A stretch of DNA of 64,000 nucleotides from Owenia fusiformis (taxonomy: Eukaryota): contig CAIIXF020000001.1 in NCBI GenBank assembly GCA_903813345.2, forward strand, positions 2,542,001 through 2,606,000, given 5' to 3'. Under the pieces are notes generated by a model. It was not told the origin of the DNA. It worked only from the letters and a program-made list of their open reading frames with translations, and did no database searches. Both the position numbers and the translations under genes were made by a program. This document shows positions 2,978 to 54,400 of this stretch, in pieces. Position 1 is the first letter of the stretch; each line of letters opens with the position of its first letter.

Positions 2978-3689
2978 TCTCCTAGATAACCAAACTCAGG
3001 AGAAAATTAGTAATTTGCATTCTACATTCCTAAATACCCAATTATACACACTATTTTCAAATATCAAATCTCATTTCTAACGAAAACAAATATTTGGATG
3101 CATTTCGTAGAATAATGGGGTCACTGCACATAACCCCTATCTAAGCCTATCTTGCTTAAAACTCTTAAATATTCTTCAAAGTATAATTTGACATTGAATT
3201 AGTTATTGTAAACCTAAAAATAATCTGTTCTGGACATATGGGTTATTATTCATTTTGTAATTGATGTTTTTATGAACATCAATTACAAAATGACAAATAA
3301 ATAAATAAATGGCCCCTTTGGGATGAAAGGGTTAATACTTATTTTTGCATTCACCAAAAATTCAAATTAAATTCTGATTCTAAAAACTGTCACTCTCAGC
3401 TTTCCAATGGTGTATCAGAACCTTAGTGCAGGTGAAGTCATTTATTTGACCCTCGTTTGCTCTACTATAAGGATCTTACCTCCAAAAGTTGAATTACAAT
3501 GCTTGGCCTCCATGATGGCATCCAACAGAGCTTGGTTATGTGTCTGCAACAAATATCATGAACTTCAAAAGTATGTCTGACTTAACCTCAACGAGAGCAA
3601 CAGAAACTCCACAGAGAAGCAAATCCCAACGAACAAAACATGTTTTGGTAAATAGTGGCCTCTTGATAATTTCTTCTTGAATAGAGCTC

Positions 3690-12158: not shown

Positions 12159-12505
12159 TATGGATGCCTGGTACAGGTAATGTCCCTATAAATAGATATA
12201 TATGTTTAAACATACTACTGACGAAATATACCAATACGCGATAACGTTTAATTTCGTTCAGTTTAGCAACCTCTCGTTTGAAGAGCTCTCATGTATGGTA
12301 CAACTTCATCTACATCCGGGTTCTTTCCCATTGGATTACACAGGGGTGCTATTTTCAATGCCGCACTGCGGCTCTATTAAACATTTATGTAGAGTTTCAT
12401 TTGCACAAACGATAGGTATGTATGTAATTAAGATATATGACAAAGCAATTTGAGCTATAATCCCCAAATCCGAAGTAATGTGTAGTTAAAAATGCCGTCC
12501 AATTC

Positions 12506-25256: not shown

Positions 25257-28200
25257 ATGGCAGCAGAAGCGATATCAAAAGGTAAGCTTGTTATTTTGTT
25301 CAAATATGTCTCTCCAGCACAGTTTATAGAGACAAAACGTCCATTAGTTTAAGTCTAGTGTGCTTGTGTTACTACGAGTTACCGGTCCACTGGCATCGAA
25401 ACAGATAGTAGATAGTTGTCCCTGAAAAGAAATAAACAAGTCTCAGTGACTCAGTCTGAGTCTCTGAGTGTTAGCCTAGGACTAGCCTAGATCTAGTCCA
25501 ACAAGTTAAACACAGTCTTGATCATTGGGCTAATTTTTACCTGACATATCAACATGCTATCTACTGCAAGACTAACGCCTGGCATAACCGTTACCATGTT
25601 ATTCAGTGTTTTTAAGTAGCACAAGGATCCTGCCTTACCTTCTTCTAAGGCGACTGTATCGTGGCCTTCCAGTAAAGATATATTCCTGCATGAACAACTG
25701 GTCATGTCGTAATCATAAAATTTGAAATCATATGTCCGCCATTTTTCCACATCACAATTTGAATTCTCGAAATCGTTGTTCCCTCTTCAAAAGAGGAGAC
25801 GCGAAAATCTTTCCTTATAAGGTCAAACTATTTCCCATGATGCAGTTCGCGGAGGAACAAATTTATACTTCCTTGTTTTCCCTCATAGGTTTAACATGGG
25901 GATTTTCACACCTATTTTTCAAACGATATATTCGTTCATATTCCCGTACGAGAGTACAGAAAAAATTATTAGAAACGATTGATCTCTTATTAATCTTAAT
26001 GTAACAGCTATTTTTTTCATTGTATTGATTCATAGCGTGGTATAAAACGACGATTGAAAAGTGAGAAAATATTCCGGAAGAGAAGGTCACGTGATCAGTT
26101 GACAAGTCGCCATATTGGAAAAAACAATTCCATTCGACTTTCAATACTTTCATGCCAATCTTACCGCATTACAAACTGCAACATCGATGCAACAACTGAA
26201 TAAAAGTATTCATCTTCAAATCATATTATAGAGTTACGTTAAAAACCCACAGACAACTGAGCAGTTGACCAAAGAAGACGCGTCGCTAATATCTAGGTCA
26301 ATCTGTTCTGTGGTCCGAAAGCAAATCTATAGTACTCGTTTCCGAATTTTGTTGTTCATTGTACAATCTTTTATTGATTAAACTTGGTATACTGACTATT
26401 AAAGCAATGACAAAGAAGAATACTTCCGATGGTGTCATTGTTTTATTTAGCGTGCGGTTGTAAAAACAAAATTGCGTAATTAGTTTGATTTAGAACTTTC
26501 GGGTCACGCAAATAGCTACGCGAAATGCATAGTGGGAGAATATTGACCAATCAAATTTTGTCCTTTTTGAGTGCTTTTTTAGAACATATTTGCGAACGTT
26601 CTGATTCAAAGAGCGAACCGCGAAAGGGAGAATTGCAAGTTTTAGTCTTATTACCTCACCAAAAATTCCAAAACACACATAAAGTGATCAGTGTATTAGT
26701 TCACATTCAACCTTTTGGATCGCTAACTTAGAATTTACAGCCAGTTACTAATGTCAGACGTTAAGGTACAGCTGGAAAGTAACATTTTGGTAAAAAATTG
26801 CTATACCTGCACATGTTATTTTCTGGTACAAAATAAAGTATGAAGGCATGTATCAATTTCCTTGCTTTTTTCAGGAAAGTATCATTACATTGTCTTCTTT
26901 TAGAATATCTGGTAGGCGTTCAAAGGGAACTCCAGGGAATTCTGATATTTCACACTTCCTGTTTTTCCAAATTTTCTTTCAAAGTTTCCAGACAACACAG
27001 GAGCTACCATTGACCTGTTTCCAGGTTTACTAAAAGTAGACAGTGTAATGATACTTTCCTGAAAAAAGCAAGGAAATACACACATGCCTTCATACTTAAT
27101 TATGTACCAGAAAATAACATGTGCAGGTATAGCAATTTTTTACCAAAATGTTACTTTCCAGGTGAACCTTAACGACATTTCGTCCAGTTTTCGAACATCG
27201 CCATTTTTCTTGGAGCCATTTTGTTTTAAATTTAGACGAAATCCTGATGAAATCATGTCATATCTCATCAAGGAGCCGAGCGGGGTCCGTTTTGATTAAT
27301 GATTTATTTATCCGGCAATTTTTAAAATATTCAATAAATTTATGACAAGGCGGCCAGCTTTTTTCAAATGGAGTTCACAGTATCCCAGATGAAATCCCCT
27401 CTAGCCAAGTATTGGCTAGAGACTCGAGTAAATCCTACCATGACCGTGGTAGTGTTATCGTAAAAGCCTGGTATTACCGCGACAATGCTGTATTATATTG
27501 CAATGCCTGCCATGAAAGTGGTAGTGTAATCGTGTAAGCCTGGCGCGACCGTAACTTTTATATGACATTCATGTTTCGTCCGTTATTTTTTACGGAGTGG
27601 CTCCAGGACCGACAATTGTCGGTACTGGAGACTGTCCAGGGGTATTTGCTGGGGTACCGACAATTGTCGGCACTCTATCGTCACCTAGTAGTGTCAGATA
27701 GAGAACCGACAATTGTCGGTACGCAAGTTGCTGCTACGTGTTTTTGCTAGAGAGCCGACAATTTCATAAATAAATGCACTACTGTTAATTTCAGGAATAA
27801 CCTCATCTCTGGTAGTCTAGTGGTTAGCGAGCACGACTCGAACACACTCGGGCTCGAGTTCGAATCCCGGCAGGACCTACTTTTTTCTTTTGAGGGGGGG
27901 GCATAGTGCTTCTTTTGCAGTATGGAATCGTACAGGCATTAACTTGTAGTGAGCCATAATTTATTTCGACAAAAATTGATTCAACTTCCATCAAAATTGT
28001 CCTACAAGCTTCAATTAAAAAACATTTTAAAGCTCTTTTCTTGTTCTATCTAATGGGTCGATATATACAATTAGGGGAGGGGATGCTTTCGCCCCCGTCG
28101 ACCTCTACCTTTACTACGCCATGGCACAGGAGAAATATCTCATTAGGAATATATCACTGTTTACTTTGCGTTTGGTAGCTCTCTCATGCGAGATGGAATC

Positions 28201-31200
28201 GTGGCCATTAACTAAGGGAGCCAAATGCAACTTCCATCAAAAATTGTGCTATAAGGTATGAGTACCGTAATCCAACACCAAATTCGAAAATTCATAACAA
28301 TACTTTGCACATATGGCGTTCGTGACCAACTATGAAACGCTTACCCCCCATAGTGTTATATATCAAAATGCACCTGTCCATATAGGGGTTCGATTGACCT
28401 ACATCAAATTATAGGGAGTCAGGTTACTTTTTGAGATATCAGCGTCCGTTTATTGTAACTCGCGTTTGCTACCACTTCCTCAATTCTGATATGACGGGCA
28501 AACGCGTAGTAAACATGCTCATGTTCGGAACTATTTTGACCTACATCGCTATTTTCGTAATTCAAATGAAAGTTGAACTCCTCTTTATTTTGATACCAAA
28601 TAGTGGCATACTAGGTACCCTAGAAGCCAACTATGGGTTATTTAGAACGATACCACAGGTTTTTAAATGGACTATATAGGGGTCATACCTTTTGGCGGAT
28701 GGATATGGAACCTCATACCATACGATAAGCTCTAGATAAAAAACATTCTAGCTATTTTCTTCTATCTAATGGGTAGCAAACGCCCCTTTCTACGCCTGAT
28801 CGGCTCAGGAGAAATATCCTGTCTGTTTAGAATATATATAGCCGTTTACTCTGCATTAATAGCTCTCTAACGTCTTACTTGTTCATGTTTTTTATTGGGT
28901 TTTCAACGTTTACTACCATTCCCTGTTCCCGGGCTACCATTTTTTGACTGGGTTTGGTAATCCCCGGGTAACCGGGGCTAATGCCCTCCCCGGGTTTTGC
29001 ACTTGTTCCCAAAATATCCGTATGATATCTGAAATATCCCCCCGCGCATTGCGCATGCGCCAGAAAATTCGAAAATCAATATTTGTCGGTCCTCTAGCGT
29101 GTAAACACAGCATATCTCCCGTACCGACAATTTATTTGTCGGTCCTCTAGCGTGCCACCACATCAGAGTCTAGAGTACCGACAATTGCAACTTCCATCAA
29201 AAATTGTGCTATAAGGTATGAGTACCGTAATCCAACACCAAATTCGAAAATTCATAACAATACTTTGCACATATGGCGTTCGTGACCAACTATGAAACGC
29301 TTACCCCCCATAGTGTTATATATCAAAATGCACCTGTCCATATAGGGGTTCGATTGACCTACATCAAATTATAGGGAGTCAGGTTACTTTTTGAGATATC
29401 AGCGTCCGTTTATTGTAACTCGCGTTTGCTACCACTTCCTCAATTCTGATATGACGGGCAAACGCGTAGTAAACATGCTCATGTTCGGAACTATTTTGAC
29501 CTACATCGCTATTTTCGTAATTCAAATGAAAGTTGAACTCCTCTTTATTTTGATACCAAATAGTGGCATACTAGGTACCCTAGAAGCCAACTATGGGTTA
29601 TTTAGAACGATACCACAGGTTTTTAAATGGACTATATAGGGGTCATACCTTTTGGCGGATGGATATGGAACCTCATACCATACGATAAGCTCTAGATAAA
29701 AAACATTCTAGCTATTTTCTTCTATCTAATGGGTAGCAAACGCCCCTTTCTACGCCTGATCGGCTCAGGAGAAATATCCTGTCTGTTTAGAATATATATA
29801 GCCGTTTACTCTGCATTAATAGCTCTCTAACGTCTTACTTGTTCATGTTTTTTATTGGGTTTTCAACGTTTACTACCATTCCCTGTTCCCGGGCTACCAT
29901 TTTTTGACTGGGTTTGGTAATCCCCGGGTAACCGGGGCTAATGCCCTCCCCGGGTTTTGCACTTGTTCCCAAAATATCCGTATGATATCTGAAATATCCC
30001 CCCGCGCATTGCGCATGCGCCAGAAAATTCGAAAATCAATATTTGTCGGTCCTCTAGCGTGTAAACACAGCATATCTCCCGTACCGACAATTTATTTGTC
30101 GGTCCTCTAGCGTGCCACCACATCAGAGTCTAGAGTACCGACAATTGTCGGTACTCTAGCCTTTACGTATTTTTTAGGGATTTACCTTATTAATTGATCA
30201 TTATAGAAAGTATGTTCTTTCGAATCGAATCTTCTTGAATAAGAGTAGAGATATGGTTTGTTCGCAAATTATTTAGGAGTTAAAAGTAGGGTTTCGTTGT
30301 GAAATTTATACACAATTTTAGTAGTCTTGATTTACATATTTAAAGTAGTTAAACACGAGGAAAACTGTCATTATGGTGTTCTCATGCTACTTTAAATGTT
30401 ATTTAATACAACCACGGTCATGAGAGGCCTTGCAACTATTGTCACGGTCATATCAGGCTTTAAGCTTACCACGGCCATGACAGGCTTTAACATTGTCACG
30501 GTCATGATAGGCCTTGCAATCATTATGACGTTCATATCAGGCTTTAACATTACCACAGTCATGACAGGCCTTACAAGCATTGTCACGGTCATATCAGGCT
30601 TTAACATTATCACGGTCATGACAGGCCTTGCAATATAATACAGCGTTGTCACAGTTATACCAGGCTTACACGATAACACTACCACGGTCATGGCAGGCAT
30701 TGCAATATAATACTGCATTGTCGCGGTTATACAAGGCTTTCACGATAACACTACCACGGTCATGGCAGGATCCTTGGGCTACTTAAAAACACTGAATAAC
30801 ATGGTGACAGTCACGCCAGGCGTTAGTCTTGCAGTAGATAGGGTCTCGACATATCTTTTGGCCTGCTATTTGGTGCATCTTCCGCCAAGTACGCAGAAAA
30901 TTATGGTGGTGCATTTTCGACAAGCACTTGCAATTCATTCATGATTTTGATATGATGAGATCAACAAGCAAACATACATAGTGCCTGAAAAACATATATA
31001 AATATCGAGCTTGATTTTGTATCTATACATGTTCCCAATTATCCTGTGCCATGACTATAATCCTGAGAACATCTCAATCTTTTGCCTGTACGATTACAAC
31101 ATGGGAGAATTTTCTACGGCTCTTACACTTAAGATACCTACTTCAATAGATTCCTGGGTATTTTAGGATTCTTTTCGTGTAGTTGAATCCACAATTATCT

Positions 31201-34200
31201 GGGTTTATCGGCAGAACAGGAACATTTTTCTTTTTTATCGAGAGAGCTGATTCCATCACTTCTTAAGATGGAGGTTGGATCTAAAAGGGGATTCCCCGTT
31301 TGACTGGCCCGGAAGTACCAATAAATGGAGAAATTTGACGGTTGAAAAAAGTTAAATATTGCAATCAAAAACAAAAATTTCTTCGTTCTGCCTATAAACC
31401 AAGATAATTGTGGATCTCATTCAGTCTGTTGGAAACATACTAGGGCCTATACATATATACTTTATGAATAAAACATTATCCCATGTCCTTCTGTGTCCTT
31501 GATGATGTATATTTTCAAAAGTATCGGAGATGGCTTTGGAAATAGTCATTCCAGGTAACATTGAAATGGCAAAACGTGTCAGTAGATAAACTGCCATTAA
31601 CGACAATGACGAAATGTTGACAAGTACTTAATACACTAAACAAAACGGTAGCAAATAGCCTGGTATGCAGGAACAGTAGGTTTGCAATGAATAATTACTT
31701 TGCATACATTCATGCGCTATATGAATCAGTCAGATAAGATACATGTTAATAATTATCAATTTATTAGATAACAATTTGGTTTCGTTGCCAACAATTTTTT
31801 TAGCGACGCACATGGCCAATGAAAAAAATTCAATTTAGAAATTGGTAAGAATAGCCTCCTTTTTTGGCTCACACAGTGAGCCTATGGGATCGACCAGCCA
31901 TCCATTGGTCCATCCGTTGGTCCGTCCATCCATCCGTCAACATTGGCCGTACAAATTAAAAATTGCTTTTCGGATTGAGTCATATCCACATTCATTTTAT
32001 GCATATCCATAATGCTTATTTGACCTATCATCGTCATTTCCCAAGTTCACCCGGTTTCCGAGATATTGCTGATTTTGACGTCAAAAAGTCAAATTTTCTG
32101 TAAATATGAAGGTTCTACACTGTGTGAGCACAGGACCGTGGGTCCTTTATTTAAATGAACATTTAGCGCCAAAATGTTACATGGAACCATCAATCGTTTG
32201 ATGCTCTAGGTGTTTTTGTATTATTGTTAAATATCTGTCGCATATTATCAAGGAAAATTGGTTTCAGCTGATCCAAAATTTGCAGTGCATGAATATATAG
32301 CATGGCAGTTAAACCCAATCTAGCACCGAGAAAATTCAGAAAAATATATTAAGTCGGATTTGGGTTTGTGAACTAAGTCCCTGTTAATTTAGCTATACTA
32401 AGAAGCACAATGAGCAGCAATTATCCCGATATACTACTGTACTCCAACTCATATTTGAAGCTATTATATTTGTGACTTCTTCAAAATTGTCCAGCCTCTT
32501 TTTTAATTTCTTTGATCAAAATCTTTTAGGACCCACAATAAATTTAATAAAACAGTACCTTCCTTCCTACCTTTTATCGCCAAGCACTGGGCAGAAATAT
32601 TGTATATACTCAGTGAAATAAATTCCCCAGAATTTCGCTACTATTATATTTTGCAGATTAAAACTATTGGAATTTTGTGGCTATTATATATGACAAATTT
32701 TTCAAAACTCATGAAAAGCGCAAATATAGCAGCACACAAAAATGTCCAGGAGTACAGTATATTATTTTCCTTCTCAGCACCATGAACAAAATCCCCAGAG
32801 AAATGTAATGACATCACATGTTGTAAGTTGTGTAATATGTGTTCAAATAGTGAGGAATTAATTTGTGTATGGGGCTTTTGAGACATAAGTTCCAGATTCA
32901 GAAGCCTTACTTTCATTTATTGTGTTTCTCTAGATGAAGGACTTCTACTAGCCTGACCAAGACTACTAGTGCCATCTATATTTCTATCTGTATAGAAATT
33001 CCTCTTTTATCAAAGTTTCTACCGACGCAAATCACATTTTCACATTATTATAATGCAACATTTATATTTATTCTTCAATGATCAAGACCAGCTTAATGTT
33101 TTTCAGATGTTGGTGAAATTTACTCCAGATTGTTCGACCATAAACCTGTGATACAGGGTGAGATCAACTATTTCATCAAAGAGTTTGAGGTAAGTCAGTG
33201 TGATACAGTGTGAGATCAACTATTTCATCGAGGAGTTTGAGGTAAGTCAGTGTGATACAGGGTGAGATCAACTATTTCATCAAAGAGTTTGAGGTAAGTC
33301 AGTGTGATACAGGGTGAGATCAACTATTTCATCAAAGAGTTTGAGGTAAGTCAGTGTGATACAGTGTGAGATCAACTATTTCATCAAAGAGTTTGAGGTA
33401 AGTCAGTGTGATACAGGGTGAGATCAACTATTTCATCAAGGAGTTTGAGGTAAGTCAGTGTGATACAGGGTGAGATCAACTATTTCATCAAGGAGTTTGA
33501 GGTAAGTCAGTGTGATACAGGGTGAGATCAACTATTTCATCAAGGAGTTTGAGCTAAGTCAGTGTGATACAGTGTGAGATCAACTATTTCATCGAGGAGT
33601 TTGAGGTAAGTCAGTGTGATACAGGGTGAGATCAACTATTTCATCAAAGAGTTTGAGGTAAGTCAGTGTGATACAGGGTGAGATCAACTATTTCATCAAA
33701 GAGTTTGAGGTAAGTCAGTGTGATACAGGGTGAGATCAACTATTTCATCAAAGAGTTTGAGGTAAGTCAGTGTGATACAGGGTGAGATCAACTATTTCAT
33801 CAAAGAGTTTGAGGTAAGTCAGTGTGATACAGTGTGAGATCAACTATTTCATCAAAGAGTTTGAGGTAAGTCAGTGTGATACAGGGTGAGATCAACTATT
33901 TCATCAAGGAGTTTGAGGTAAGTCAGTGTGATACAGGGTGAGATCAACTATTTCATCAAGGAGTTTGAGGTAAGTCAGTGTGATACAGGTTGAGATCAAC
34001 TATTTCATCAGAGTTTGAGGTAAGTCAGTGTGATACAGGGTGAGATCAACTATTTCATCAAGGAGTTTGAGGTAAGTCAGTGTGATACAGGTTGAGATCA
34101 ACTATTTCATCAAAGAGTTTGAGGTAAGTCAGTGTGATACAGGGTGAGATTAACTATTTCATCAGAGTTTGAGGTAAGTCAGTGTGATACAGGGTGAGAT

Positions 34201-37200
34201 CAACTATTTCATCAAGGAGTTTGAGGTAAGTCAGTGTGATACAGGGTGAGATCAACTATTTCATCAAGGAGTTTGAGGTAAGTCAGTGTGATACAGGGTG
34301 AGATCAACTATTTCATCAAGGAGTTTGAGGTAAGTCAGTGTGATACAGGGTGAGATCAACTATTTCATCAAGGAGTTTGAGGTAAGTCAGTGTGATACAG
34401 GGTGAGATCAACTATTTCATCAAAGAGTTTGAGGTAAGTCAGTGTGATACAGGGTGAGATCAACTATTTCATCAAGGAGTTTGAGGTAAGTCAGTGTGAT
34501 ACAGGGTGAGATCAACTATTTCATCAAGGAGTTTGAGGTAAGTCAGTGTGATACAGGGTGAGATCAACTATTTCATCAAAGAGTTTGAGGTAAGTCAGTG
34601 TGATACAGTGTGAGATCAACTATTTCATCAAGGAGTTTGAGGTAAGTCAGTGTGATACAGGGTGAGATCAACTATTTCATCAAGGAGTTTGAGGTAAGTC
34701 AGTGTGATACAGGGTGAGATCAACTATTTCATCAAGGAGTTTGAGCTAAGTCAGTGTGATACAGGGTGAGATCAACTATTTCATCAAGGAGTTTGAGCTA
34801 AGTCAGTGTGATACAGGGTGAGATCAACTATTTCATCAAAGAGTTTTGGGTATCAGTTGTAGCTATGTCAATCTACAAATCTTCATTTAGCAGTATATCC
34901 CAATGTCTATTTACACATAGAGGCTACTGATTTCTGAGTTGTAATATCCTGTTTGAGGTCAGATGAAGACACATCAGTCATTATAATGTGTCTTCAGACT
35001 GATTGACATGTTTTGAAATGCTTAAGGAGGTCTGCACAATAAACTTATCTTTGGAAATAATTCTCAAAGGAATGTGATATATCATTCAGATCTTTAAAGT
35101 TTGAAGCACCCTGGGACCCTTCTGGTAACTCAAAGGATGAGTAGCAGCCCCCCATGGCAGCAGCAGCACCTAATCATGAGTTGCCAAGGGTCTCTGTTTC
35201 CTGCAAGTGCTTTCAAAGGCCAAATACTTAGATATTGACATTTGACCTTGATATGACCTTGACCAATATAACATTGACCTTGACCTCAGGTCACTTAATC
35301 AAGGGTCGCCATGGGTCACACGAGTCCCCAGGGTCTTAAATTGCAAATACCTAGATATAGACAGACCATTGACCCTGGAATGACCTTGACATCAGTTCAC
35401 CTAATCATGGGTTGTCAGGGGTCATAGCAGCTCCCAAATTCCTTAAGTCACCAAATACTTAGACATTGACCTCTGACCTTGAGATGACCTTGCCCTCAGG
35501 TCACCTAATCATTGGTTGCTAAGGATAACAGCAGTCCAAAAGATCTTAAATCACCAAATACCTATATATTGACTTTTGACCTAGGAATGACCTTGACCTC
35601 AGGTCACCTAATCAAATCATGGGTCACCAAGAGCACAACAACCCCCAAATGTATTAAAACGCAAATACCAAGATATTGACCTTTGACCTTGAGATGACCT
35701 TGACCCTTAAACATTAACCTTGACCTCAGGTCACCTTATCATTGGTCGCAAAGGGTAACAGGAAGCTCAACGACCTTATATCACCAAATACCAAGATAAT
35801 AACCTTTGACCTTATAATAATCTGACCGATAAAGTTGACCTTGATGTGTCGTCAAGGCAGGGTCACAGACAGGCAGACAGACCACTAATGCTTTACAGTA
35901 AGAAGAAGAATATACATAGACATTGGAATATTTCTAAATGAACCGATTTGTTGTATGACATAAATATCTAATATCAAAGAAGCAGAGACTAGCAAAAATG
36001 TAATGAAGGTAAAGAATGGTAAATGGATGAATTTACTCGATAATTGATAAACAAGGGTGATAAAGAAATAAAGTTATTTTCCTTATGTCTACATTAATTG
36101 GTATTTTTTATGGTATAAGCTTCTTATGACTGATATAGTATATAGTATATTCAGAAATCTGGAGGAAGTCAAGGAAATCTTGATGCTAAACAGGGAAAGT
36201 GAGAAAGAATGAAATTTGATGTATTGAAGTGATGAAGTTTCCATTTATGACATTCTGTCTCACTTGAACTTGTATTCTTTGAATTTCATGCATTTGAATT
36301 TGAATTATCATCTTGTGCTTCAGGAAAAGAGACAAGATCGAGAGGTAGAAAGGCTCCATAAGATGGCATATCACATGGAAGAACTGAACAATAAGGTTAT
36401 GCCCGAGTGCCACAATAACATGGAAAAATACCTTGGTGATATTGAAGCAAAAAGTAAGCATGACAGTTTAATAACGTAACATGCAACATGACCAAATTCT
36501 TACAACTTCCAATAACTTAACAAATACTTTTAGGCTGACTTTGATTTTTTTCAAAATCATCTACAAGCTTTCTGAAGTTCAAATCTGTCTTTAGATTTGA
36601 CCTTCAATGACATTCTCAAGGTCAAAAAGTTCAAAAATGTATTTTTTAACTTGCTTCAAATTGACCAGATTTGATCTTCTTTTTTCAAAATCATCTACAA
36701 GTTTTCAGAAGCACAAATCTGACTTTAGATTTAAGATTTAACCTCCAATGACCTTCTCAAGGTCAAAAAGGTAGTTTTTCAACTTGCTTCATATTGACTG
36801 TATTTTCTTTCAAAATCATGTACAAGTTCTCATACAAGTTCAAATTTGACCTTAACTCTAGATTTGAGATTTGACTTTCAATGACCTTGTAAGGTAAAAC
36901 AGCTCTTCTTTCAAATTGACCAATTTTTTCAAAATCATGTAGAAGTTTTTAGAAATTCAAATCTTATTTTTAGATTTCAGATTTGACCTTCAATGACCTT
37001 CTCAAGGTCAACTTGCCTCAAATTGACAATATTTTTTACGAAATCATGTACAAGTTCTCAGAAGTTCAAATCTCACTTAGATTGAACTCATAATATTGTG
37101 AGCAGCTGGGTGGTGACATTTTGTCATGTTAATGCCTTGTTCTTGATATCATATTCGTATTTTTATCGAAGTATTTAAAAAATTAGAGTAAATTCCATGA

Positions 37201-38069
37201 ACCATTCTGTATTTGTAAATTTTTGGTATGAGTAGTTATCTCATGTAGAAATTCTATTAATTTCAAAGTATTACAACATTTCTGTACATACTGGGAATCA
37301 TAAAATTAAGATTACACTGGACGAAGTCCTGACTGGTGAATATCATTTGATATTCAGTGGAAGTGGAAAAAGCGATATCTATGGAATACGGAGAATATTC
37401 CACAGATATCACTTTTTTCCACGGATTTGAAAACTCACGCCAATGGAACGTGCATTGTTACATGGTTACATGTTATATGCTTACATGGTGATTTCATGAT
37501 GTCACAAATATGGAAATGATTAATGTTTTGGCTATAGTTCAGACAAATAAAACTGAATGTTGTGAAATGCTTTGGAAGGTGAACTATGGGATGATTTGAC
37601 CTCAACTATGGGATAATTTGAACATCCTATGATTTTTTCGTGATATCATTTTAATCCACTCTTTAATATCAATATCTGCACTCATTTGCTACGCTCACTC
37701 GTCCAGATATTGATATCAACTCTTGGATAAAAATGGTATCCCTCAAAATCATAGGATATCCTATACTTATTTTTTTTGAGGAATATGACAGTAATATAAT
37801 AATCTAATATATTTCTAGTAAAGGCTGCAACCTATATGTGCAACAAAGTGACTGAAAAAGAGGCTGCATTGAACTCTGATGAGTTGTTGAAGTCCTCGAG
37901 AGCTGCAAGGGTTAAGGAGTGGTCTGAATTCATAGAAGAGATGTGCGAGAAGAGTAAAGCAGTGGATGATAACCACGAAGAACAAGCTCAAAAACTATTG
38001 AATCATTACAAAGAACTAGAGGAGAATTTACATATTGTGCCATCACCCTATGGAACCCCATCAAAGTGA
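25257..38069 (+). CDS. BLOC1S5: Biogenesis of lysosome-related organelles complex 1 subunit 5 (Muted), 162 aa; exons 25257-25281, 33107-33189, 36324-36453, 37819-38069
   Basis: All junctions are GT-AG and in phase (489 nt). The product MAAEAISKDVGEIYSRLFDHKPVIQGEINYFIKEFEEKRQDREV... matches the remembered human motif KDLGEIHSRLLDHRPVIQGETRYFVKEFEEKR. AATAAA at 38457-38466. Confidence 0.93.
25635..27431 (+). mobile_element. Asymmetric-ended element (TTACCTTCTTCTAAGGC...GGCTAGAGACTCGAGTAA) with 8-bp TSD
   Basis: Flanked by ATCCTGCC / ATCCTACC; splits the host TIR arm; both termini recur fused at 41635-41673. Confidence 0.75.
26765..27168. mobile_element. Kolobok-like MITE, TTAA TSD, long TIRs
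   Basis: TTAA|GGTACAGCTGGAAAGTAACATTTT ... AAAATGTTACTTTCCAGGTGAACC|TTAA; ~135-bp inverted arms. Confidence 0.85.
27593..30167 (+). mobile_element. MULE-like non-autonomous element, copy 2, with an internal 960-bp tandem duplication
   Basis: TSD TATTTTTTA (27584-27592 / 30168-30176); co-linear with 18161-19506; 28226-29185 is repeated at 29186-30145. Confidence 0.88.
30405..30775. repeat. ~27-30-bp minisatellite (cacggtcatgacaggc...) in the right arm of the composite element
   Basis: Repeated acggtcat(g/a)...caggc(c/t)tt units; inverted counterpart at 27439-27560. Confidence 0.8.
31861..32148. mobile_element. Short HINE/Helentron-like element
   Basis: Hairpin gctcacacagtgagc, a (ccat/ccgt) microsatellite, subterminal gtgtgagc and an end hairpin ggaccgtgggtcc, in a T-rich context. 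Confidence 0.5.
33148..34850 (+). repeat. 52-bp tandem array (~33 copies) duplicating the last 42 nt of BLOC1S5 exon 2 plus its splice donor
   Basis: Unit gtgatacagggtgagatcaactatttcatcaa(a/g)gagtttgag|gtaagtcagt; the first unit is the real exon end. Confidence 0.97.
35150..35890. repeat. GACCTTGACC-rich degenerate repeat element (HINE-like)
   Basis: Recurring caaatac(c/t)tagatattgacc..gaccttgacctcaggtcacctaatca units ending in a cagacaggcagacag microsatellite. Confidence 0.55.
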
Positions 38070-38210
38070 GAATTTACATATTGTGCCATCACCCTATGGA
38101 ACCCCAACAAAGTGAGAATTTACATATTGTGCCATCACCCTATGGAACCCCAACAAAGTGAGAATTTACATATTGTGACATCTCCCTATGGAACCCCATC
38201 AAAGTGAGAA
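38022..38210 (+). repeat. 46-bp tandem repeat (x4) spanning the last 15 codons and the stop codon of BLOC1S5
   Basis: Unit gagaatttacatattgtgccatcaccctatggaaccccatcaaagt at 38022, 38068, 38114 and 38160; TGA is formed at each unit junction. Confidence 0.95.
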
Positions 38211-40703: not shown

Positions 40704-41609
40704 CAGGGTGTTCAAAAAAAACGCAACCCAAGGAAATCGCTATATCTTGGAAAATACTCATCAAATTATGTTTATATTTTCAGGAAAGAAAGAAGAGACT
40801 GTATGTATAGCTCCTGTTGTTAGTTAGTTGTAAAACATGATGTCTTGGACATTTGCTCAAAAAACAGTTGTACTAGCAAAATACGAAAAACGTGAATAGA
40901 AAATCACTATATCTTGGAAAATACTAATTCAATAATGTTCATTTTTTTCAGGAAAAGAAAGAAGAGACTGTGTATGTATAGCTCCTGTTGTCAGTAAGTT
41001 GTAAAACATGATGCCTTGGACACCTGCTCATATGACAGTTGTTCTAGGAAAACATGAAAACGCAGTCAAAGGTGACTGCCACAGCAATAAAACCAAAAAA
41101 TAACTTTCTAACCATGGTGTTTTGGCACTTCAGATTTGGCACAAATTATCCTCATTCAATGTGTGGTGAATTTGTGGAGTTTCATCAAAATCACTCCAGG
41201 GACTTTACAGTCATGGTCAAAATGCCTTCTTAAGTCTCCCTGAACCAGGGCGTTTGACTGCGATTTGAAAGCATTTCAACCATTAATGTAAAGTTCCTGA
41301 AGTGATTTTAATTTCACTCTGCAGATTTACCATACAGTGAATGAAGATGATTTGTGCCAAATTTGAAGAGCCAAAACACTATGGTTAGAAAGTTATTTAA
41401 TTTTTTTGAGGTTGCAGTCACCCCGGACTGCGTTTTTCGTATTTTCCTAGTACAACTGTCTTTTGAGCAGGTGTCTAAGGTATCATGTTTTACAACTAAC
41501 CATTTACAGGAGCTATACATACACAGTCTCTTCTTTATTTCCTGAAAATATAAACGTAATTGAACCAGTATTTTTCAAGATATAGCGATTTCTTTTTTTG
41601 AACACCCTG
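40704..41609. mobile_element. Tc1/mariner-like MITE (TA TSD) nested in an older TIR element (~40590-41870)
   Basis: TA|CAGGGTGTTCAAAAAAA ... TTTTTTTGAACACCCTG|TA; outer inverted arms at 40590-40662 and 41793-41868. Confidence 0.85.
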
Positions 41610-45499: not shown

Positions 45500-48400
45500 A
45501 TGGTCTCGTCGCACATCTTTATTGGAGCGTTCTTATTCACGATCTCTATTGTTTTAGGCATTTCCAATGCCAATGGTTCTGCCGGTAGGTTTTCAGGTTT
45601 TATTTAGCTTTATTGTAACCTGGGTATTACAGTATGACTTTGAATAAAATGGACCGATTCATTTGAATATTCTCTCATTTTATTTACATTTCAAATAATA
45701 TCTAAACATTTATGTAACACGCCCGGTGATTGTACAAAAATGATGGTGGGGGGATTAGGCGATTTCAAAAAATAAGTTATTTTTTCAAGAGAAAATTTAC
45801 AACTGAATTGCCAATTGAATAGGCGCAATGCATGGCAAAATATGTTAGGTCATCTAGTATTTCTTTTGAATTGATGCCCTTCTAAGATATGAGATCTATT
45901 AAAAAAGGCGCATCATCACCAACGTGCAATAGTCAATGTTTTTGCTATAAATCGGGCAGCAATGGTCTACACGACCTGTAATAAATAGGTATAAGGGACG
46001 TTATTATCACAATACTAATGACATTGCTCACTTTTTAAAGATAGTTTCCATGCGTTATACAAAAAATAAAAAAAATAAATGATCCCTCCAAATTTGTTGA
46101 GCTTTCTTGCAGAAATCGCCTAATCCCCCCTCCATCATTTTTGTACGATCACCGGGCGTGTGTAAGTTCAAACAAAGTTAGTTTTAGTTGCAAAACGTTT
46201 GGATATTTTGAATTGCTTGTGGTTTGCAATTATGGCCAACAAAAGATTGGTATCGATATGGTAACTTTTTGAACACACGTTTCTCTTAAAGGTCAGGGTG
46301 TATGATGGGAAATTTTCTGCATTCCTCAATTGAGTCGCATGTTATTTTTCAAACAGGAATCACCCCTTCCCCACATTTTCTTTATTTTCCAGTTTTGCAC
46401 AAAGAGTGCACCTATGTGCCTAGAAAAGACTTGTGAGAAGAACGTTTTGATAAAGTGTATAAAAAACAAGAAAATTCAGTGGAAAAAATTCTGAAAATGC
46501 AGAAAAAGGGATGCAGAAAATTCCCCATCATGCACCGGCCTGAAATTAACCAGTCATCAAAGAATTCTGAAAAAAAATTCTGAAAATTTTACACATCGTC
46601 AATTTAATGGTCATCTTTTGAATGGTGACAATATAATTTGAAAAAAATATATACTTTTCTCTGTATTGTTTTAGAAAACACATTAGACACTTATTTTGTT
46701 TTTGGTAACATATGTTTGGAATGAAATGAAACATCTATCCGAACCTCATTGGAAAAACAAAAAACGACAGAAACACAACTTGTTTAGGTCTCTCAATATT
46801 GTAATTGTACAAAGCAAAGTTTGGTTGATTTTTAAAAAGTATCTTGTTAATGAAATAAGAGGTTTTCTTAATTTTTATCCATTTTGTGGGGTTTTGTTTT
46901 AATTTTTTGAACATTTTTTTTGTAAAATCAACCTAAATATCCTTTGTATAGGCTAACTACGTATAATATTGAGAGGTCTAAGAAAATGTTGTATATGCTA
47001 TTTTGTTAAAGGTTCGGAAAGACATGTTATTTCATTCTCAAGAATTGGTAGAAAGGAACAAAAAACAATAGCACTAAAAAAACATTTTTAACCAAAACAG
47101 TTATATAGAATATATATAGATACCTTTCACATTAGATTGTTGCATTACATTGTCAACATTACATAAAGGACCGTGTTTTTATAGATCATTTTCAATAATT
47201 AGTTTAAGAGAAAAAAATTGTTGAATTCCGTTCACCATATCGATATCTATCCTTTGTGGATTCTTGTACTTTGATGCTTCTCTAACATGTTTTTTATCTG
47301 AAATATACAAATGTTTTTCATGTAGGCATAATAAATGAATGATTTTTTTCTCATGAACTATTGTACTGTCCTTTGTTATTTTTCAGATTTGATTGATTGA
47401 CGCGTTATTAATGGCGTTAACAATTGCCACATTTTCTTCACTTTCAGACAATGTATGTTCATCCCTCATGGTTCTCAAGAACGCTGGAACATTTTCATCA
47501 CCTGTAGGGAGTGATGGACAATACCTAAGTGGTCTTAAATGCGCATGGTCAATTACAGTACAACCAGATCACGTAAGTCCGTGTAGTGTGCACTACGTTC
47601 TTGTATTATACTATAGGATCAGTGATTCCTCTACTCATGAGGAGGTTATGCGATATGCGTTTTTCAGAGATCTTGTACGTGGAGATGTAATACGATGACC
47701 CTTACTCAAATATTACTTTTGCCTCTCATTTCGATTTTCCAGGGACCAAATTTCAACTATCTTGTATAGGATAATTCAACAGGTTCACGTACAAGTTCTC
47801 TTAGAAATGTGTACCTTTCTCTTTCCCTTCACCAATAGAGAAGGTGTATTTGTATCAGTGGTGCATCCAGAATCTTGTGTTAGGTAAGGCGCAACAATTG
47901 GCTGGGAGTCATCTTCGTCAAGGAACTAGACCTGGCGCACGGGACAATATTGTCAAACTGAGTTGACGAAGGCTCACCATTTGCGACGTTTAGAGTTTTT
48001 ACTATTCATTTAGGCAATTTTAATAGATTCGTAACTTCTGATCTGTAACCATTTGTGCGATTTTGTCAACTTGTTAATAGCTATCAAAAATCATGCTCTC
48101 TTAATAATTGGATTAGAATTGATGTTACATCTTAATCCGCGATAATATATTGTCTATTGTATATAGCATCTAATTCCAAAGATTATAATTTAATCGCTTT
48201 AAATAAGCTTCAACGATTACTTTAATTTTCCTAAGTAATTAGATAACGAGCTTAGAAAGTGATTACTAGGCCTCCCTTTTCTTATCCCACCGAACAAAGT
48301 TCAGGAGGACATAGAGTACATGTCTGTTCGTCCGTCCGCCCATCCGTCCATCCACCCGACCGCCGAGAAACAACACAAATATCGTCGGTCCGATATTGTT

Positions 48401-51400
48401 ATATATTTATTTGCATAGGCTGTATGTACCTGTTTATTGTAGGCTGTATATTTTGAAAGTGGCCGATGGGTTCAGTGTTGCTTTCACAGTATTTTTATCA
48501 TGTAAAAACATATTATCTAAGTTTTACATAATGCATGAAATTATTCATAATGTTAATTTTCTCCAAAATACATTTTGACTTTTACTTGCTATTCTACGTT
48601 TTTAGCTGTGAGTTGTAACTTGAAAATCAGAAGAGCAATTTTGTTGATTATTTATCATCAGTGTCAAGATTTAGGGACAAAAATTTATGTCATTTTTAAG
48701 TAAAGCTTTTTTTCTTTACAATGACGAGTTGAGAAATTTAAAAACATCCAACTTACTGAACTTTTAAACTTTTAAGGCATGTATTTTCAAAAAGCTTTAC
48801 ATTGGCGATATTCCATTACATTCTTGGACTTTGATTATTTTACGATTGAAAGTTGTGAACTTTTAATGCAGGCATTTTCAAAAAGCTTTACATTGGCCAT
48901 ATTCCTTTACATTCTTGGACTTAGAATATTTCACGAAGCAACGTTGTGAACTTTTAATGCAGGCATTTTCAAAAAGCTTTACATTGGCCATATTCCTTTA
49001 CATTCTTGGACTTAGAATATTTTATGATATATAGAAGTGTAATTTATGGCATGCATTTTCAAAAAGCTTTACATTGGCCATTTTCCCTTACATTCTTAGA
49101 CTTAGAATATTTTACGATCTGAAGAGGTGAACTTTTACAGCATGCATTTTCAAAAAGCTTTACATTGGCAGTTGGGTTAAATCTCAGTTAAATCTTGACA
49201 TATATATTATTTATGAATAGATAGTTGGAAGCATGACTGTCATGACACTGGAAAAGTAGTTGAACAATTTAGTTGTTCATTTATATGTTGATACTTTGAA
49301 GCATGACACTTTTTTGACTAGTTTAATGCTTCCAAAGGAGTAATAAAAATTCAGAAAATGACCTACCCTTGGCGTAATAATTCAAACGATGCATTTGTAA
49401 ATATTTAATTGTTTACAATCTCTTATCAGTTGTTTTTAACTCTAAGCCGATTTCAGTATTGGATTAATATTTGATATTTATCTATAGGTTATCCAACTGA
49501 CGTTTTCAAAGTTTGACTTGGAACAGTCGTTGAACTGTGAAGATGGTGACTACATCATTGTTTACAACGGCGAGAGTTCGCAAAGTGATACACTGGCAAC
49601 AATCTGTGGGGAGAATGCAAAACCAATTTTCTCAACGACTTCCAAAATGATTGTGGAGTTTATCTCAAATGATAAGATTGAGCGCTCTGGGTTTACAGCC
49701 AGTTTTAAAACAGTTGATCAATCAGGTATGCAAAAGTATAGTATAATTAAAGAAGAGGAGGACATACTCTAGAATTCACAGATGAACATACTACAGAAAT
49801 ATAAAGATGATCCTCTAGAGGTTCATCTTTAAGGGGAAGGTTCATCTATGAATTTAGAGGTATCACCCTTTCTATAGTAAACGACAAACAAGATCATCCA
49901 GTGGAAATCTCACCAGAAAAGGCCAAAAGATAAAACCCATATATGTCTCTCATTACAGAACTGGATGTCTTTCATATAAGCTTAGCGTTATATAAAAAAA
50001 TCAAAAAGAATTACAACAAAGATTCATTGCTTTCATTTAAAAAAGAAATCTTGCTACGCTGATGGATGAATACATAGCTTCCTTAATCCACGAGCAATAT
50101 TGTTATCATATGATTCTGATTCAAATATTCTGTTCCAGCTGCCGCTTGCGCTGGTGGAAGAGGTCCTCTTAAACTGACAGACACTAAAGGTTCAATCAGA
50201 TCACCGGGATATGATGGTAACAACATATATCCCCCTAATGTCATGTGCCAATGGCTCATCGAGGCAAATGAAGGAATGGTAAGTTATGATGGTACATTTT
50301 GAGTATACTTTAGGTTTCCAGACCTCCATTGATATACAATGTATCTAAAACCAAATTGAAAGTATAACTACTAAGAGTGCAATTTTTACAAAAAAACTAT
50401 GTTTACAGGAGATTGAACTTACAGCCGATAGATTTGCACTTGAAGAATCCAGAGGTTGTAACCACGACCATGTTGACATCTTTGATGGGTCTGAACCCGT
50501 GTTATCTAAACTACTAGGGAAATATTGTGGCATCCATGCTCAAATTGAACTCGACCATGCACCTACTTCAAACATGATGCTTATCACATTTATATCAAAC
50601 AATAATGTTGGCGGACTTGGATTTCGTTTTGGATACAGTATGTATCCCACGACTATGTCAAGTAAGTATAACCACATATGGGAAATCTTTCACCATGTTC
50701 TCTGCTGCATCTCATTTGGGTATTTACACTAATATTTGTATTATGGATTTAACTTTTCAAGGAATAATCTCTGTGACTTCATTTTCTAGCCCATGGCTTT
50801 CATGGTTTCTCACATCTTTCAGGGTCGAAACAGAATGGTGTCAGAGCTTTCTCAAATCTTCCTGGTTGTGGAGTGCCTGCTATCAGAGATGAAGCGAGGA
50901 TAGTTGGTGGTGTTGAAGTCACTCCCCATAGTTGGCCATGGACTGTCATGCTAGTAGACTCTAGTGGTAATGCATATTCACAATTCTGTGCTGGTACCTT
51001 AGTGAGGAACAACTGGGTTGTCACTGCAGCTCATTGTATTGGAAGGTTTGTATTCAATGCCCTATTTAATTGGATACGCATACTCTTCTTTCTCTCCTAC
51101 TCCTGAAATAACAGTTCAGTAACAATCTTTTGATGTATCATAGAACCTTTAAACTAAAAAGTACAAAAATATTGCGAAGGTCTTTGCATTTATATGAATG
51201 TACTTGTTATGATATTGTATACAATATTAAATGTTGTTTTCAGTACTTCACCATATTCACTAAAGGTTAGGCTTGGTGAACACAGTAAAGGGGCTACTCA
51301 CGATGGAGGCTATGTGGTAGATGTTGCAGAAATCATTAAACATGAGAAATATTTAAGTGCAACTAGTGGATATGATTTAGCAATGTTGAGGCTTGCAGAA

Positions 51401-54400
51401 CCTCAACAGCTGAATGATAATGTTCAAACTGCTTGTATTGTACAAGAAGATATTCTTGATGGTCCTGATTATAACTGTGTTGCCACTGGATGGGGTACAT
51501 TGTCATGTGAGTTATTGTGGCTTCTTTTTTAATGTCATTGCATACTCTTACATGTAAAACAACATTCTTCTCTCTATTCTCATTACTACTGCTAAATTCA
51601 TTTGAAAAATCATGTATTACCCCACTTCATGTATTACACTTTTATTTATCTTTCTTAAATACCCATGGGCAATGGGACACAAGTCTATCTTATTATTTGC
51701 TATATTAAATATATGATCGTAACAAAATTCCAGTTCAAGGGAGTTCATCTGAGGTTCTCATGAAAGTTGGTTTGCCTATTCTTCCAAGACAACAATGCTC
51801 TGAGGCATATGGGAATTTCTTCACTGACACCATGATATGTGCTGGTTTTATGGAAGGTGGAAAAGATTCATGTCAGGTAGGTTTTTGAATGCTGATAAAA
51901 CTTTTGTTCATATGTCCATATTTGGAATGCTATTATACATAAACTTATATACTATACTGTATGTAGCCTCAATTAGTGTTAATTAATTGTATATTTCATA
52001 TTTCATTGCAGGGTGACTCAGGAGGCCCATTGGTGTGTCAGTCATCATCATCCCCCTCTGCACCTTGGTATCTTACTGGTATAGTCAGCTTTGGCAACGA
52101 ATGTGCAAGTCCCGGGTATCCTGGTGTCTACACACGAATAGCAAATAATGAGATTCAAAGCTGGATCATGGATAGATTGACTGATCAGCCAGCGCCAACA
52201 GTTGATCCAAATGATCCATGCTCAAATATTGTTGAATTTACTGAATCCACTGGTGTCATCAAGACAAATGGTTATCCCAATAATTATGATAGTAATTTAG
52301 AATGTAGGTGGTTGATAAGAGGCTCAGCAAACCAGGTTTGTTATTATATATTAGTCATCATATTACGTTATGTTTTAGACTGATATAAATATGGCAAACT
52401 ATGGTAGAATTTATTATTTTCTCTCAGTCCAAGACACGTAAAAGAGATTGATTGCACGGCCATCTTCATTTCAAAATTAATCATATCGTCCTTTAGCCTG
52501 TGCAAATTACACTTTCTTTAGAAGATTGTATGCTGAGTGACACAATCACTTGATAATGATTTAGAAAAAAACTGGATCAGTCGTCAGATCATCATTCATT
52601 TTTACAGAATGTAAGGCTGGAGTTTACTGCCTTCGACATAGAAGATGATGGTGACTGTGGATATGACTCTGTGAGTCTGTTTAGTTCAAATGCAGCAGAT
52701 GAAGCAAACAAACTGGGAAGCCTCTGTGGTAACTCAGTAAATCCTTCAGTTTATACATCTACTGGGAGTAACATGTTTGTTCTGTTCAAGTCAGATGATA
52801 GTCTTGTGAAATCTGGTTTCCGAGCTGAATATACTCTTGTTGCAAGTAAGTACATAAAATATTTATGAATGTGTATAAGTATGACATGTATATTGCACTA
52901 ATATAAAAATGTTAAAAGATTTATTGTATCAGACAACATTTTAACCCTAGCTGTACATTTTACGACCCTTGATAGCAAGTTGCTGCTACGGCCCAGCTGT
53001 AGTGGCTTAAGCCTTTATAGCTCAGTTGGTAGAGCATCAGACTTTGGATCCAGGGGTCCTAGGTACGATTCCCACACGCGGCATTGAATTTAGCACACTT
53101 TCTTTCAATTTCTTTATCTGGCTTGTTACACTATGCTTGTTAGTTAGTTATTCATGGGGCATTCGTTACATTGAACCTAGGACCCCTGGATCCATTACAT
53201 ACACATAGGTTTTAGGCCAATATAAAGATGGCAGCAGTGGTACTATTTTATTATGTAAGTCAAGGAGGCCGATTAGCTCCCAGGATCCAAACTCGATATT
53301 TTCAAACAATGAAATTGTCGAAATTTCGTTATTTTCTGATTCAAATCAATATCTCAATCATTTCTTGTGAGTTTTGTAATTTTTCCTTTGGAAATTAGAC
53401 TAAAATTCATGATTCAAATGTTGAAATGAACAAATTGGTAGCTTTTTAAATTCGAATTTGTAATCATGACATGCCCATATATGGCAAAAATATTGATGTT
53501 GTACTCTGGGAGCCAATCCTTATTGATGCAAAACATTCATTGCTCTGCCATCTTTATTTGAAAATAATTCCTATGGCCCTTTAGCCTATGTTTTAACATC
53601 TGATTCCTTAATCCTGGTGCTTGTGTTTTAGATGGACCCTCCCCCACTTCAGACCCAACACAACCACCTTCAACTGGTCAATGTGGCAGTCCAGCCATTG
53701 CACCCAATTTACCAAACACAGTCCGTGGCTTTGAAGATTCTGTCAGTAAGGTGGTTAATGGAGAGGATGCTGTACCTCATAGTTGGCCCTGGCAGGTTAT
53801 GCTCACTACATTGAATGGAAGACACTTCTGTGGAGGAAGTTTATTGAATAATTACTGGGTCATCACAGCTGCTCACTGCTCAGTCAAGTTGGTATATCTA
53901 CATAGATTTAAGGCAGAGATAAAGATGGCAGCTGTGTTAGAATTTTATTCCATAATATGTAAAATTGATTGCACTGCCATCTTTATTTGGAAATTGTTTC
54001 TATTGCTCCAGCCAATATTACTATTAGGGTAATTCTAATAATTTCTGATATCCTACTGCCAGAAATATATTCTTCATGCAATCTCTCATATGTGTGGAAT
54101 TCCATGAGGTTATGGAAATGATTGAAAATGAAATGTGATATTTTAAAATTTCCTAGACTTTTTGTGTGAAATTTCATTGTTGTCACTCGTCTAGTTTAGG
54201 AGATATAGGTGTTGCCTTCTGGTCTCCTTCTTTTAGGTCACCCTGTATTGATAAATTAAATGTAATCTTCTCATGGTTCCCTCAATATCCACGCATGATA
54301 TTGCTGACTGACTCAAAATCTTGTTTCTTTCTGATGTGCTACTACTTCTAACCAATTCACAACTTTGAACCATTTTCAATTTTATAGTCAACGAGAAGAT

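Follow-up and report, generated by a model that had tools for sequence, protein, structure and literature searches.

The BLOC1S5 locus

The window, by which we mean the whole 64-kb (64,000-nucleotide) stretch of Owenia fusiformis DNA analysed here, carries the gene BLOC1S5, the second coding exon of which ends inside the first unit of a 52-bp minisatellite (Table 1). When joined, the four coding exons reproduce letter for letter P0001, a protein of 162 aa that the database records under the name Owenia fusiformis. This bears out two points of the initial annotation, namely the identity of the gene and the exon 2 boundary at 33189. The exon ending at that boundary matches the Pfam family Muted (PF14942; E 3.7e-14); the match extends over three exons, and all matches above the cut-off lie at this locus, which makes it a single gene. 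No solved structure was matched by the sequence of P0001. Coding exon 2 (83 nt) and exon 3 (130 nt) have the same sizes as in human BLOC1S5. The worm protein (162 aa) differs from its family in having a shorter N-terminus, while intron 1 resembles that of the human gene in being in phase 1, human exon 2 starting at c.113 according to the accessible part of PMC8533863. A candidate exon 1 at 31530–31554 was rejected: it has zero RNA depth in all three runs, and P0001 begins differently.

Table 1. Features of the BLOC1S5 locus (positions in the window)
Feature	Position	Strand	Evidence or remark
BLOC1S5 coding exon 1, ATG to donor AAG|GTAAGC	25257..25281	+	translates into the N-terminus of P0001; joined exons equal P0001
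BLOC1S5 coding exon 2 (83 nt), with array unit 1 as its final 43 nt (33147-33189)	33107..33189	+	PF14942; RNA depth
52-bp minisatellite, 32.8 copies, 43 nt of exon end plus GTAAGTCAG	33147..34846	+	TRF; unit split
Genuine donor GAG|GTAAGT	33190..33195	+	only donor yielding the 162-aa protein; RNA depth drops behind it
First in-frame TGA on read-through (43-aa product)	33211..33213	+	translation
28 intact pseudo-donors, last cut at 34693|34694	33242..34699	+	26/28 with CAG 33 nt upstream
Array end lacking donors: units 31 and 32 (GAGCTAAG) and decayed unit 33	34703..34860	+	sequence
BLOC1S5 exon 3, 130 nt	36324..36453	+	PF14942; boundaries from sequence and P0001
BLOC1S5 last coding exon, to the stop codon	37819..38069	+	PF14942; 100% identical to P0001
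Second array in BLOC1S5, 46 bp x 4.1	38022..38210	+	final codons, stop codon included, copied into the 3' region

Anatomy of the array

TRF describes the minisatellite with a period of 52, 97% matches and a score of 3190, and splitting at unit starts gives 33 units, i.e., 30 of 52 bp, two of 50 bp (units 17 and 20) and a partial last one. The earlier estimate of about 33 tandem copies is thus confirmed, and so is the array itself, although its span, first given as 33148 to 34850, starts at 33147 and ends by TRF at 34846. Each unit is composed of the last 43 nt of coding exon 2 and nine intron nucleotides. The description of 52-bp units that all repeat the same codons holds for the length of 30 of them, but not for the two 50-bp units, and among the 30 full units the Gly codon is altered in six and Lys is replaced by Glu in two.

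There are 29 intact GAG|GTAAGT donors, the genuine one and 28 copies, the latter in 28 of the 32 later units, in fair agreement with the roughly 30 decoys proposed originally; outside the array, the motif has no site in the window on either strand. The three dead donors are replaced by GAGCTAAG (units 8, 31 and 32), and the last unit has a decayed donor, TGG|GTATCA, so that the reported few altered donors and degenerate terminal unit were seen correctly. The 30 full units differ from one another at a mean of 1.17 positions. They fall, with the others, into ten distinct types in a patterned order, the variant block of units 2–8 recurring as units 9–16; the interior is homogenised, while the edge, where the last donor has decayed, is divergent. 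In assembly G000 the array is single-locus, all 14 of 14 matches lying here.

Ten unit types in a patterned order argue against an assembly artefact with one or few real copies, a reading that we find hardly credible. It may draw on the fact that no contig spans the array, but contig depth in one other DNA run, X5, is raised over it (summed depths of 897 and 526 in array bins vs 39–104 in four bins of 32783–33066, values that do not represent copy number), and RNA reads are present beyond donor 1. The short contigs of X5 suggest many array copies.

Coding outcome of the later donors

Within intron 2, which is 3134 nt long, read-through to any of the 28 later intact donors leads to a 43-aa frame; because the 52-nt unit shifts the frame, the premature stop is independent of the variant found in unit 2. 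The original statement that every later donor brings a premature stop is therefore correct for read-through (28 of 28), but it fails where a cassette is formed: in 26 of the 28 later intact units, a CAG lies exactly 33 nt before the donor, making a potential in-frame cassette of 11 codons (phase 0-0, frame open to 173 aa). Each unit's CAG|G acceptor and donor could accordingly supply one or more 33-nt micro-exons, and hence a 173-aa protein with an 11-residue duplication. In addition to the regular CAG spacing and the open frame, this reading is favored by an acceptor score of 3.3 bits, close to the 3.8 bits of the genuine last-exon acceptor under the same crude matrix, and by a published model in which mirage units are exonised (PMC3087553, accessible part). 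The acceptors of exons 2 and 3 nevertheless score higher (6.6 and 9.7 bits), the CAG has several AGs just upstream and lacks a pyrimidine tract, P0001 is without the insertion, and no supporting joint occurs among the 15 listed of 26. We consider such micro-exons very improbable.

In a ratchet point for recursive splicing, a donor comes immediately after a strong acceptor rich in pyrimidines, within a very long intron. The array units were rejected as such points, since the acceptor score of the AG that precedes each GT is −2.6 bits (self-trained matrix) and the intron is 3.1 kb. RNA structure hiding the later donors was also rejected, region 33107–33350 folding no better than shuffles (z +0.51).

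RNA depth across the array

RNA depth was obtained from three raw runs under the Owenia fusiformis label (X21, X22 and X23, in this order below), over a stretch that left out exons 1 and 3. In exon 2, at 33129, the depth is 21, 16 and 22, in sense reads. Just past the first donor, in bin 33209–33270, it is 4.29, 0.95 and 1.29; this bin can collect collapsed reads from all array units, so that these depths are upper bounds. They correspond to at most 20%, 6% and 6% of exon depth for molecules extending past donor 1, in steady-state RNA, which hides products removed by nonsense-mediated decay (NMD). When spread over the array, the same signal is about 1%, 0.3% and 0.3% per base. The intron 1 bin adjoining exon 2 has a depth of 0–0.39. 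Among the 24 loose read ends listed (437 further entries exist), none lies at 33189. A33129G is present in 21/21, 15/16 and 13/22 reads, by which the RNA animals differ from the assembly; the length of the array in those animals is therefore not given by the assembly. The profile, which consists of depth and not of exon 2–exon 3 junction reads, fits dominant use of the first donor.

The same data bear on the idea of a leaky rheostat, in which the second or later donors would feed NMD and the dose of BLOC1S5 would be tuned by how long the array is or by how many of its donors are intact. Sense reads past donor 1 occur in all three runs, in X21 at as much as 20% of the depth in the exon; all 29 intact donors are identical and, at 12.1 bits, top every GT site sampled (generic matrix). 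Moreover, in human 6-16 and CBS two pseudo-sites, the proximal ones, are used (PMC1557585, accessible part). On the other hand, an unspliced intron signal of ~0.3–1%, with 32 units collapsing on one bin, explains the depth; the intron 1 bin shows 0–0.39. Nothing points to selection on the number of copies, and the frequency of arrays of this kind is compatible with chance. A rheostat is, in our opinion, improbable. We give equally little credence to the broader proposition that the array is splice-active, its donors sending to NMD a fraction of BLOC1S5 RNA that depends on copy number, or its CAG..GT pairs supplying in-frame 11-codon micro-exons. If true, the array would act as a splice rheostat found in nature and as a source of new exons, and the genome of this annelid might contain a thousand or more like it.

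Arrays at exon borders in the genome

The window, which was chosen for having such an array, contains two further splice-border arrays and one array at a stop codon. In 920 kb sampled, 50 strict arrays cover 4.6% of the sequence, and splice sites are spanned by 3 of the 38 scorable arrays, against a chance expectation of 1.3–2.3 (P 0.14–0.40); preferential targeting of exon borders is thus not shown. Because the self-trained splice matrices drifted, the enrichment test used the generic matrix; the coding model, built from 59 kb in 41 long frames, is a weak one.

Tandem arrays may still arise preferentially at exon borders in this genome, for example where homology ends between divergent haplotypes in recombination repair, or through a splicing-linked process. 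The additional arrays of the window are in line with this, as are the 8 of 38 sampled arrays, vs an expected 3.8 (p 0.03), that lie above the 90th percentile for random units matched to them, and two more arrays that begin at a donor or 7 nt after it (L015, L042); furthermore, 3 of 38 is a floor, because Pfam detects only some exons. However, the excess fades to 4/38 above the 95th percentile (p 0.12) and 1/38 above the 98th (p 0.54), the rank test gives p 0.18, the relaxed set has 14/122 above the 90th percentile (p 0.34), some top scorers are repeats within long reading frames, the observed 3/38 lies near expectation, and the window was selected because of its array. We regard targeted origin as doubtful, although clearly less so than the rival readings above. 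It concerns how arrays arise and is compatible with neutrality.

Discussion

The array is, in all probability, an exon-border minisatellite, or "mirage", and most likely neutral. The 28 look-alike donors seem to be largely ignored. In the mechanism that we propose, 52 nt that include the exon 2 donor, with sequence on either side of it, would have been duplicated in tandem and the array then expanded and homogenised via unequal exchange or slippage, as the variant pattern suggests. The first copy would preserve the exon and its donor, all later copies falling inside intron 2. By analogy with human F7, for which this was shown experimentally, the spliceosome would define the 83-nt exon from the single strong upstream acceptor and take the first donor met. 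Read-through products, which meet a stop after 21 nt and thus far ahead of the later junctions, would presumably be removed by NMD. The array would persist because its cost is small. Minisatellites abound in this genome, and some of them land on splice sites by chance. Two observations sit uneasily with neutral first-donor use: the pseudo-donors are of near-perfect consensus, and run X21 permits up to 20% read-through.

That a conserved gene tolerates such decoys had been presented as a surprise. It loses this character, as the same anatomy is known from five human genes and from lancelets (PMC1557585; PMC3087553; PMC3902484; accessible parts) and is met again in the window and in genome regions that were not selected for it, no more often than chance can explain. 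Both the anatomy and the first-donor rule are already published, and the Owenia BLOC1S5 array adds an annelid case; no papers on such arrays in Owenia fusiformis were found in the open-access literature. The single locus matters little, its value being that of one of many natural test cases. Extrapolated to the whole genome, the 3 arrays found in 920 kb correspond to about 1,600 (Poisson 95% range 340–4,800). Such a number would extend the lancelet habit to an annelid, and both first-donor scanning and the gain of introns or exons from these repeats could then be tested across a genome. Gene prediction and the mapping of short reads can also be misled by boundary-spanning arrays.

Comparison with known systems

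Human donor-spanning minisatellites are described, in the accessible part of PMC1557585, for F7 IVS7 (37 bp x 5–9), interferon-inducible 6-16 (25 pseudo-sites), CBS IVS13 (15–20), LMNB2 (100 bp x 10–15) and PDGF intron 4 (81 bp x 16–18). For UPF3A, a further candidate among human VNTR cases, the literature search found no paper. As in Owenia, the first monomer lies over the exon-intron boundary and the intron repeats one and the same donor. The donor farthest upstream is the dominant one in the human genes, and the RNA depth would fit this for Owenia as well. The exon part of the unit amounts to 4 of 37 nt in F7, vs 43 of 52 nt in Owenia. Likewise, the F7 donor is weak (CV 74), and there perfect pseudo-sites competed with a weak authentic site (PMC1557585, accessible part), whereas the Owenia donors are near-consensus. 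The Owenia array further differs from the human cases, so far as that text describes them, in having 28 intact copies of which every read-through product stops early. Earthworm metallothionein has intronic repeats, boundary spanning not being stated in the accessible part of PMC12783039; that of PMC10078293 had no bearing on the Owenia array.

Lancelet mirages (Adh3, with 10–72 bp units, troponin C, globins BflGb6 and BflGb9, and PGBD5; PMC3087553 and PMC3902484, accessible parts) occur in a cephalochordate and not an annelid, and the globin cases, with 3–6 copies, have fewer than the Owenia array. In both lineages, the exon-intron boundary is repeated in tandem, the splice signal is kept in many but not all copies, and several loci occur per genome. 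Normal mRNA is made from the lancelet genes, and the RNA depth would fit this for Owenia. The signs of turnover in the Owenia array, i.e., low unit divergence, a repeated variant block and a decayed edge unit, are those reported for lancelet mirages (PMC3087553, accessible part), in which the interior likewise evolves in concert and the edge units are excluded.

Results

The 52-bp minisatellite at the border of exon 2 and intron 2 of BLOC1S5 comprises 33 units (30 of 52 bp, 2 of 50 bp and a partial one at the end) of 10 distinct types. The repeat unit consists of the final 43 nt of exon 2 and the 9 nt that open intron 2; about 1.66 kb of the 3.13-kb intron is array. The array accounts for all 29 occurrences of GAG/GTAAGT in the window; GAGCTAAG stands in its place in units 8, 31 and 32, and the donor of the last unit has decayed. 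The initial annotation had described the repeat, its changed donors and its degenerate last unit correctly. Its assignment to BLOC1S5, with exon 2 ending at 33189, is also borne out: the frame ending there matches Pfam Muted (E 3.7e-14), and the joined coding exons equal exactly P0001, a 162-aa database protein labelled Owenia fusiformis. A genome search with the Muted family placed the remaining exons downstream and gave no second Muted locus over the cut-off; P0001 shares 100% identity with the last exon and was the one hit among 118 candidates. Since P0001 probably derives from gene prediction on similar DNA, it does not serve as independent proof of the junction.

Among the 30 full units the mean difference is 1.17 nt, spread over five columns; units 9-16 repeat the variant order of units 2-8; and in the terminal unit the exon part equals the exon sequence exactly, the intron part being decayed. 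This pattern suggests unequal exchange with a homogenised interior. The array is confined to one locus, where all 14 matches of a genome DNA search with 33050-33250 fell. In X5, a DNA contig run, summed depth over array bins is 897 and 526 vs 39-104 in four nearby bins; these values are not copy number, and they fit many copies. That the array is an artefact is, in our opinion, scarcely credible.

Arrays and other features in the window and in sampled loci (L) of the genome assembly
Feature	Location	Strand	Remarks
BLOC1S5 coding exons	25257-25281, 33107-33189, 36324-36453, 37819-38069
BLOC1S5 donor array	33147-34846		52 bp x 32.8, 97% matches (Tandem Repeats Finder)
Tandem duplication, intron 1	~28200-30100		two near-exact copies, ~960 bp
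Dispersed repeats, intron 1	31150-31430, 31860-32210		the latter strand-biased
46-bp x 4 array	38022-38210		copies last BLOC1S5 codons and stop; border repeat without splice site
Donor array behind trypsin-domain exon (61787-62043)	62013-63229 and 63592-64000, on into L009:1-360		44 bp; copies exon end and donor
Acceptor-side array	5445-6372	minus	66 bp x 14; acceptor motif kept in 14/14 units
Two-copy 171-bp duplication	40734-41060		acceptor-like T-rich CAG in each copy; tested frame without Pfam match
CUB/trypsin protease and CAP-domain exon cluster	47393-64000 and L009		Thr-rich linkers; duplicated block, ~56800-58100 vs 59400-60950
Scramblase donor array	L038:4783-6829 (C1 near 60.0 Mb)		110 bp x 18.6; Pfam E 1.9e-20
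TRPM-like acceptor array	L051:6255-7281		94 bp x 11; E 6.3e-5, below curated cut-off
PQ-loop gene donor array	L072:2690-2830		47 bp x 3; Pfam hits in next exons
Glycosyltransferase intron-start array	L042:2508-2805		starts 7 nt past donor
AAA-ATPase gene intron-start array	L015:9278-9790		GTATGT 16x; starts at donor; not among the 38 scored
145-bp tandem array	L019:1-9852 (C2 near 10.0 Mb)		long; tRNA-derived look by eye

The claim that every downstream donor yields a stop stands for read-through and would fail for a spliced-in cassette. Since a TGA lies 21 nt past the genuine donor (donor 1), use of any of the 28 intact donors downstream would result in an identical 43-aa frame. A stop with two later junctions downstream is an expected target of NMD, as is predicted here for the read-through RNA. 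On the other hand, a CAG 33 nt upstream of the donor in 26 of the 28 intact copies makes an 11-codon in-frame cassette possible (173 aa). The cassette acceptor has no pyrimidine tract and scores 3.3 bits, vs 6.6, 9.7 and 3.8 for genuine BLOC1S5 acceptors (crude generic matrix); the units acting as a ladder of micro-exons is judged very improbable. Most units also carry a second donor-like site, AGG/GTGAGA, found in the genuine exon as well (33158).

Reads from three raw RNA runs (~6, 6 and 12% of each) and the DNA contig run were placed on 31150-33270, an interval extending through exon 2 into the array for two and a half units and ending before exon 3. RNA depth at 33129 is 21, 16 and 22; every first mate there maps to the minus strand, the usual signature of plus-strand RNA in stranded libraries. 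Depth is 0, 0.39 and 0 in the intron bin just 5' of exon 2, and a low 4.29, 0.95 and 1.29 in bin 33209-33270. Molecules using later donors must cover the array start, so the depth of this bin sets a ceiling for them of roughly 20%, 6% and 6%; should the reads stem from unspliced RNA spread over all units, the level would be ~1%, 0.3% and 0.3% per base. Such steady-state depth leaves leakage into NMD products hidden, and a leaky rheostat working through the predicted NMD target is unlikely in our judgement. The RNA animals carry another allele at 33129 (21/21, 15/16 and 13/22 reads), and their array may therefore differ. Loose read ends at 33189 were absent among the 24 listed (437 further), which transposon-like reads crowd; 15 of 26 read joints were listed. 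Hundreds of RNA reads originating elsewhere pile up on the dispersed intron 1 repeats. The 244 nt from the start of exon 2 (33107-33350) have no better fold than shuffled sequences (z +0.51), giving no sign of a masking structure.

Two further splice-border arrays lie in the window. The trypsin array is split by a 360-bp unrelated insert. The unit of the 66-bp array is 22 codons long, with frames that remain open over many units; the genuine exon of this array extends to ~5298 and lies downstream of an open frame of 1803 codons (6777-12185).

The unselected estimate used 92 10-kb pieces of the assembly (920 kb), ten adjoining the window and ten contiguous on C2; L097 (Ns) and L089 (overlapping L056) were dropped. 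With a period of 20-300, three or more copies and 85% or more matches as thresholds, 50 arrays were counted, covering 4.6% of the sequence; 38 were scored, leaving out those <400 nt from either end of a locus and repeats sharing a period inside one locus. The Pfam scan covered frames crossing array edges in L009-L088 plus neighbouring frames of five loci; arrays in L090-L102, except L094, were judged by exon score only. Three of the 38 (L038, L051, L072) span a splice site and exon sequence, which extrapolates to ~1,600 genome-wide (340-4,800). With 26,966 genes, a figure from excerpts of PMC9977687, and 5-9 introns per gene assumed, chance would give 1.3-2.3 (P of at least 3, 0.14-0.40). Against length-matched random units, 8 of the 38 exceed the 90th percentile of exon score (p 0.03), 4 the 95th (p 0.12) and 1 the 98th (p 0.54), with a rank test p of 0.18; in a relaxed set, 14 of 122 exceed the 90th (p 0.34). 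These figures do not show targeting of exon borders. How such arrays start is a separate question, and we consider a targeted origin less likely than not. In L038, the "intron" portion of the unit is similar to exon sequence lying upstream, and a different donor, GTGAGC, closes the last unit; what is now the foremost donor may thus have arisen through the duplication itself.

Discussion

The array would have expanded by unequal exchange; the choice of donor 1 may rest on exon definition or on scanning in the 5'-to-3' direction, NMD would clean up the products, and the array would persist through near-neutrality. We consider this combined reading probable, neutrality of the array being most likely.

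In excerpts of PMC1557585, the first monomer spans the donor in the human F7, 6-16, CBS, LMNB2 and PDGF minisatellites. The F7 pseudo-sites are shown there to be functional, yet unused while an upstream site works, only perfect-consensus ones having competed; two pseudo-sites are used in 6-16 and CBS. Lancelet "mirages", minisatellites spanning exon-intron boundaries, leave splicing undisturbed, and unit exonisation is proposed as a route of intron gain, according to excerpts of PMC3087553 and PMC3902484. The open-access literature yielded no description pairing Owenia fusiformis or annelids with minisatellites or mirages. The BLOC1S5 array shows four of six listed features of boundary-spanning minisatellites, dominance of the authentic site being partly tested, and probably works like the human and lancelet cases; it differs from them in being mostly exonic, with near-consensus donors and an annelid host. 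The boundary-spanning arrangement is already known from human and lancelet genes, to which BLOC1S5 adds an annelid case.
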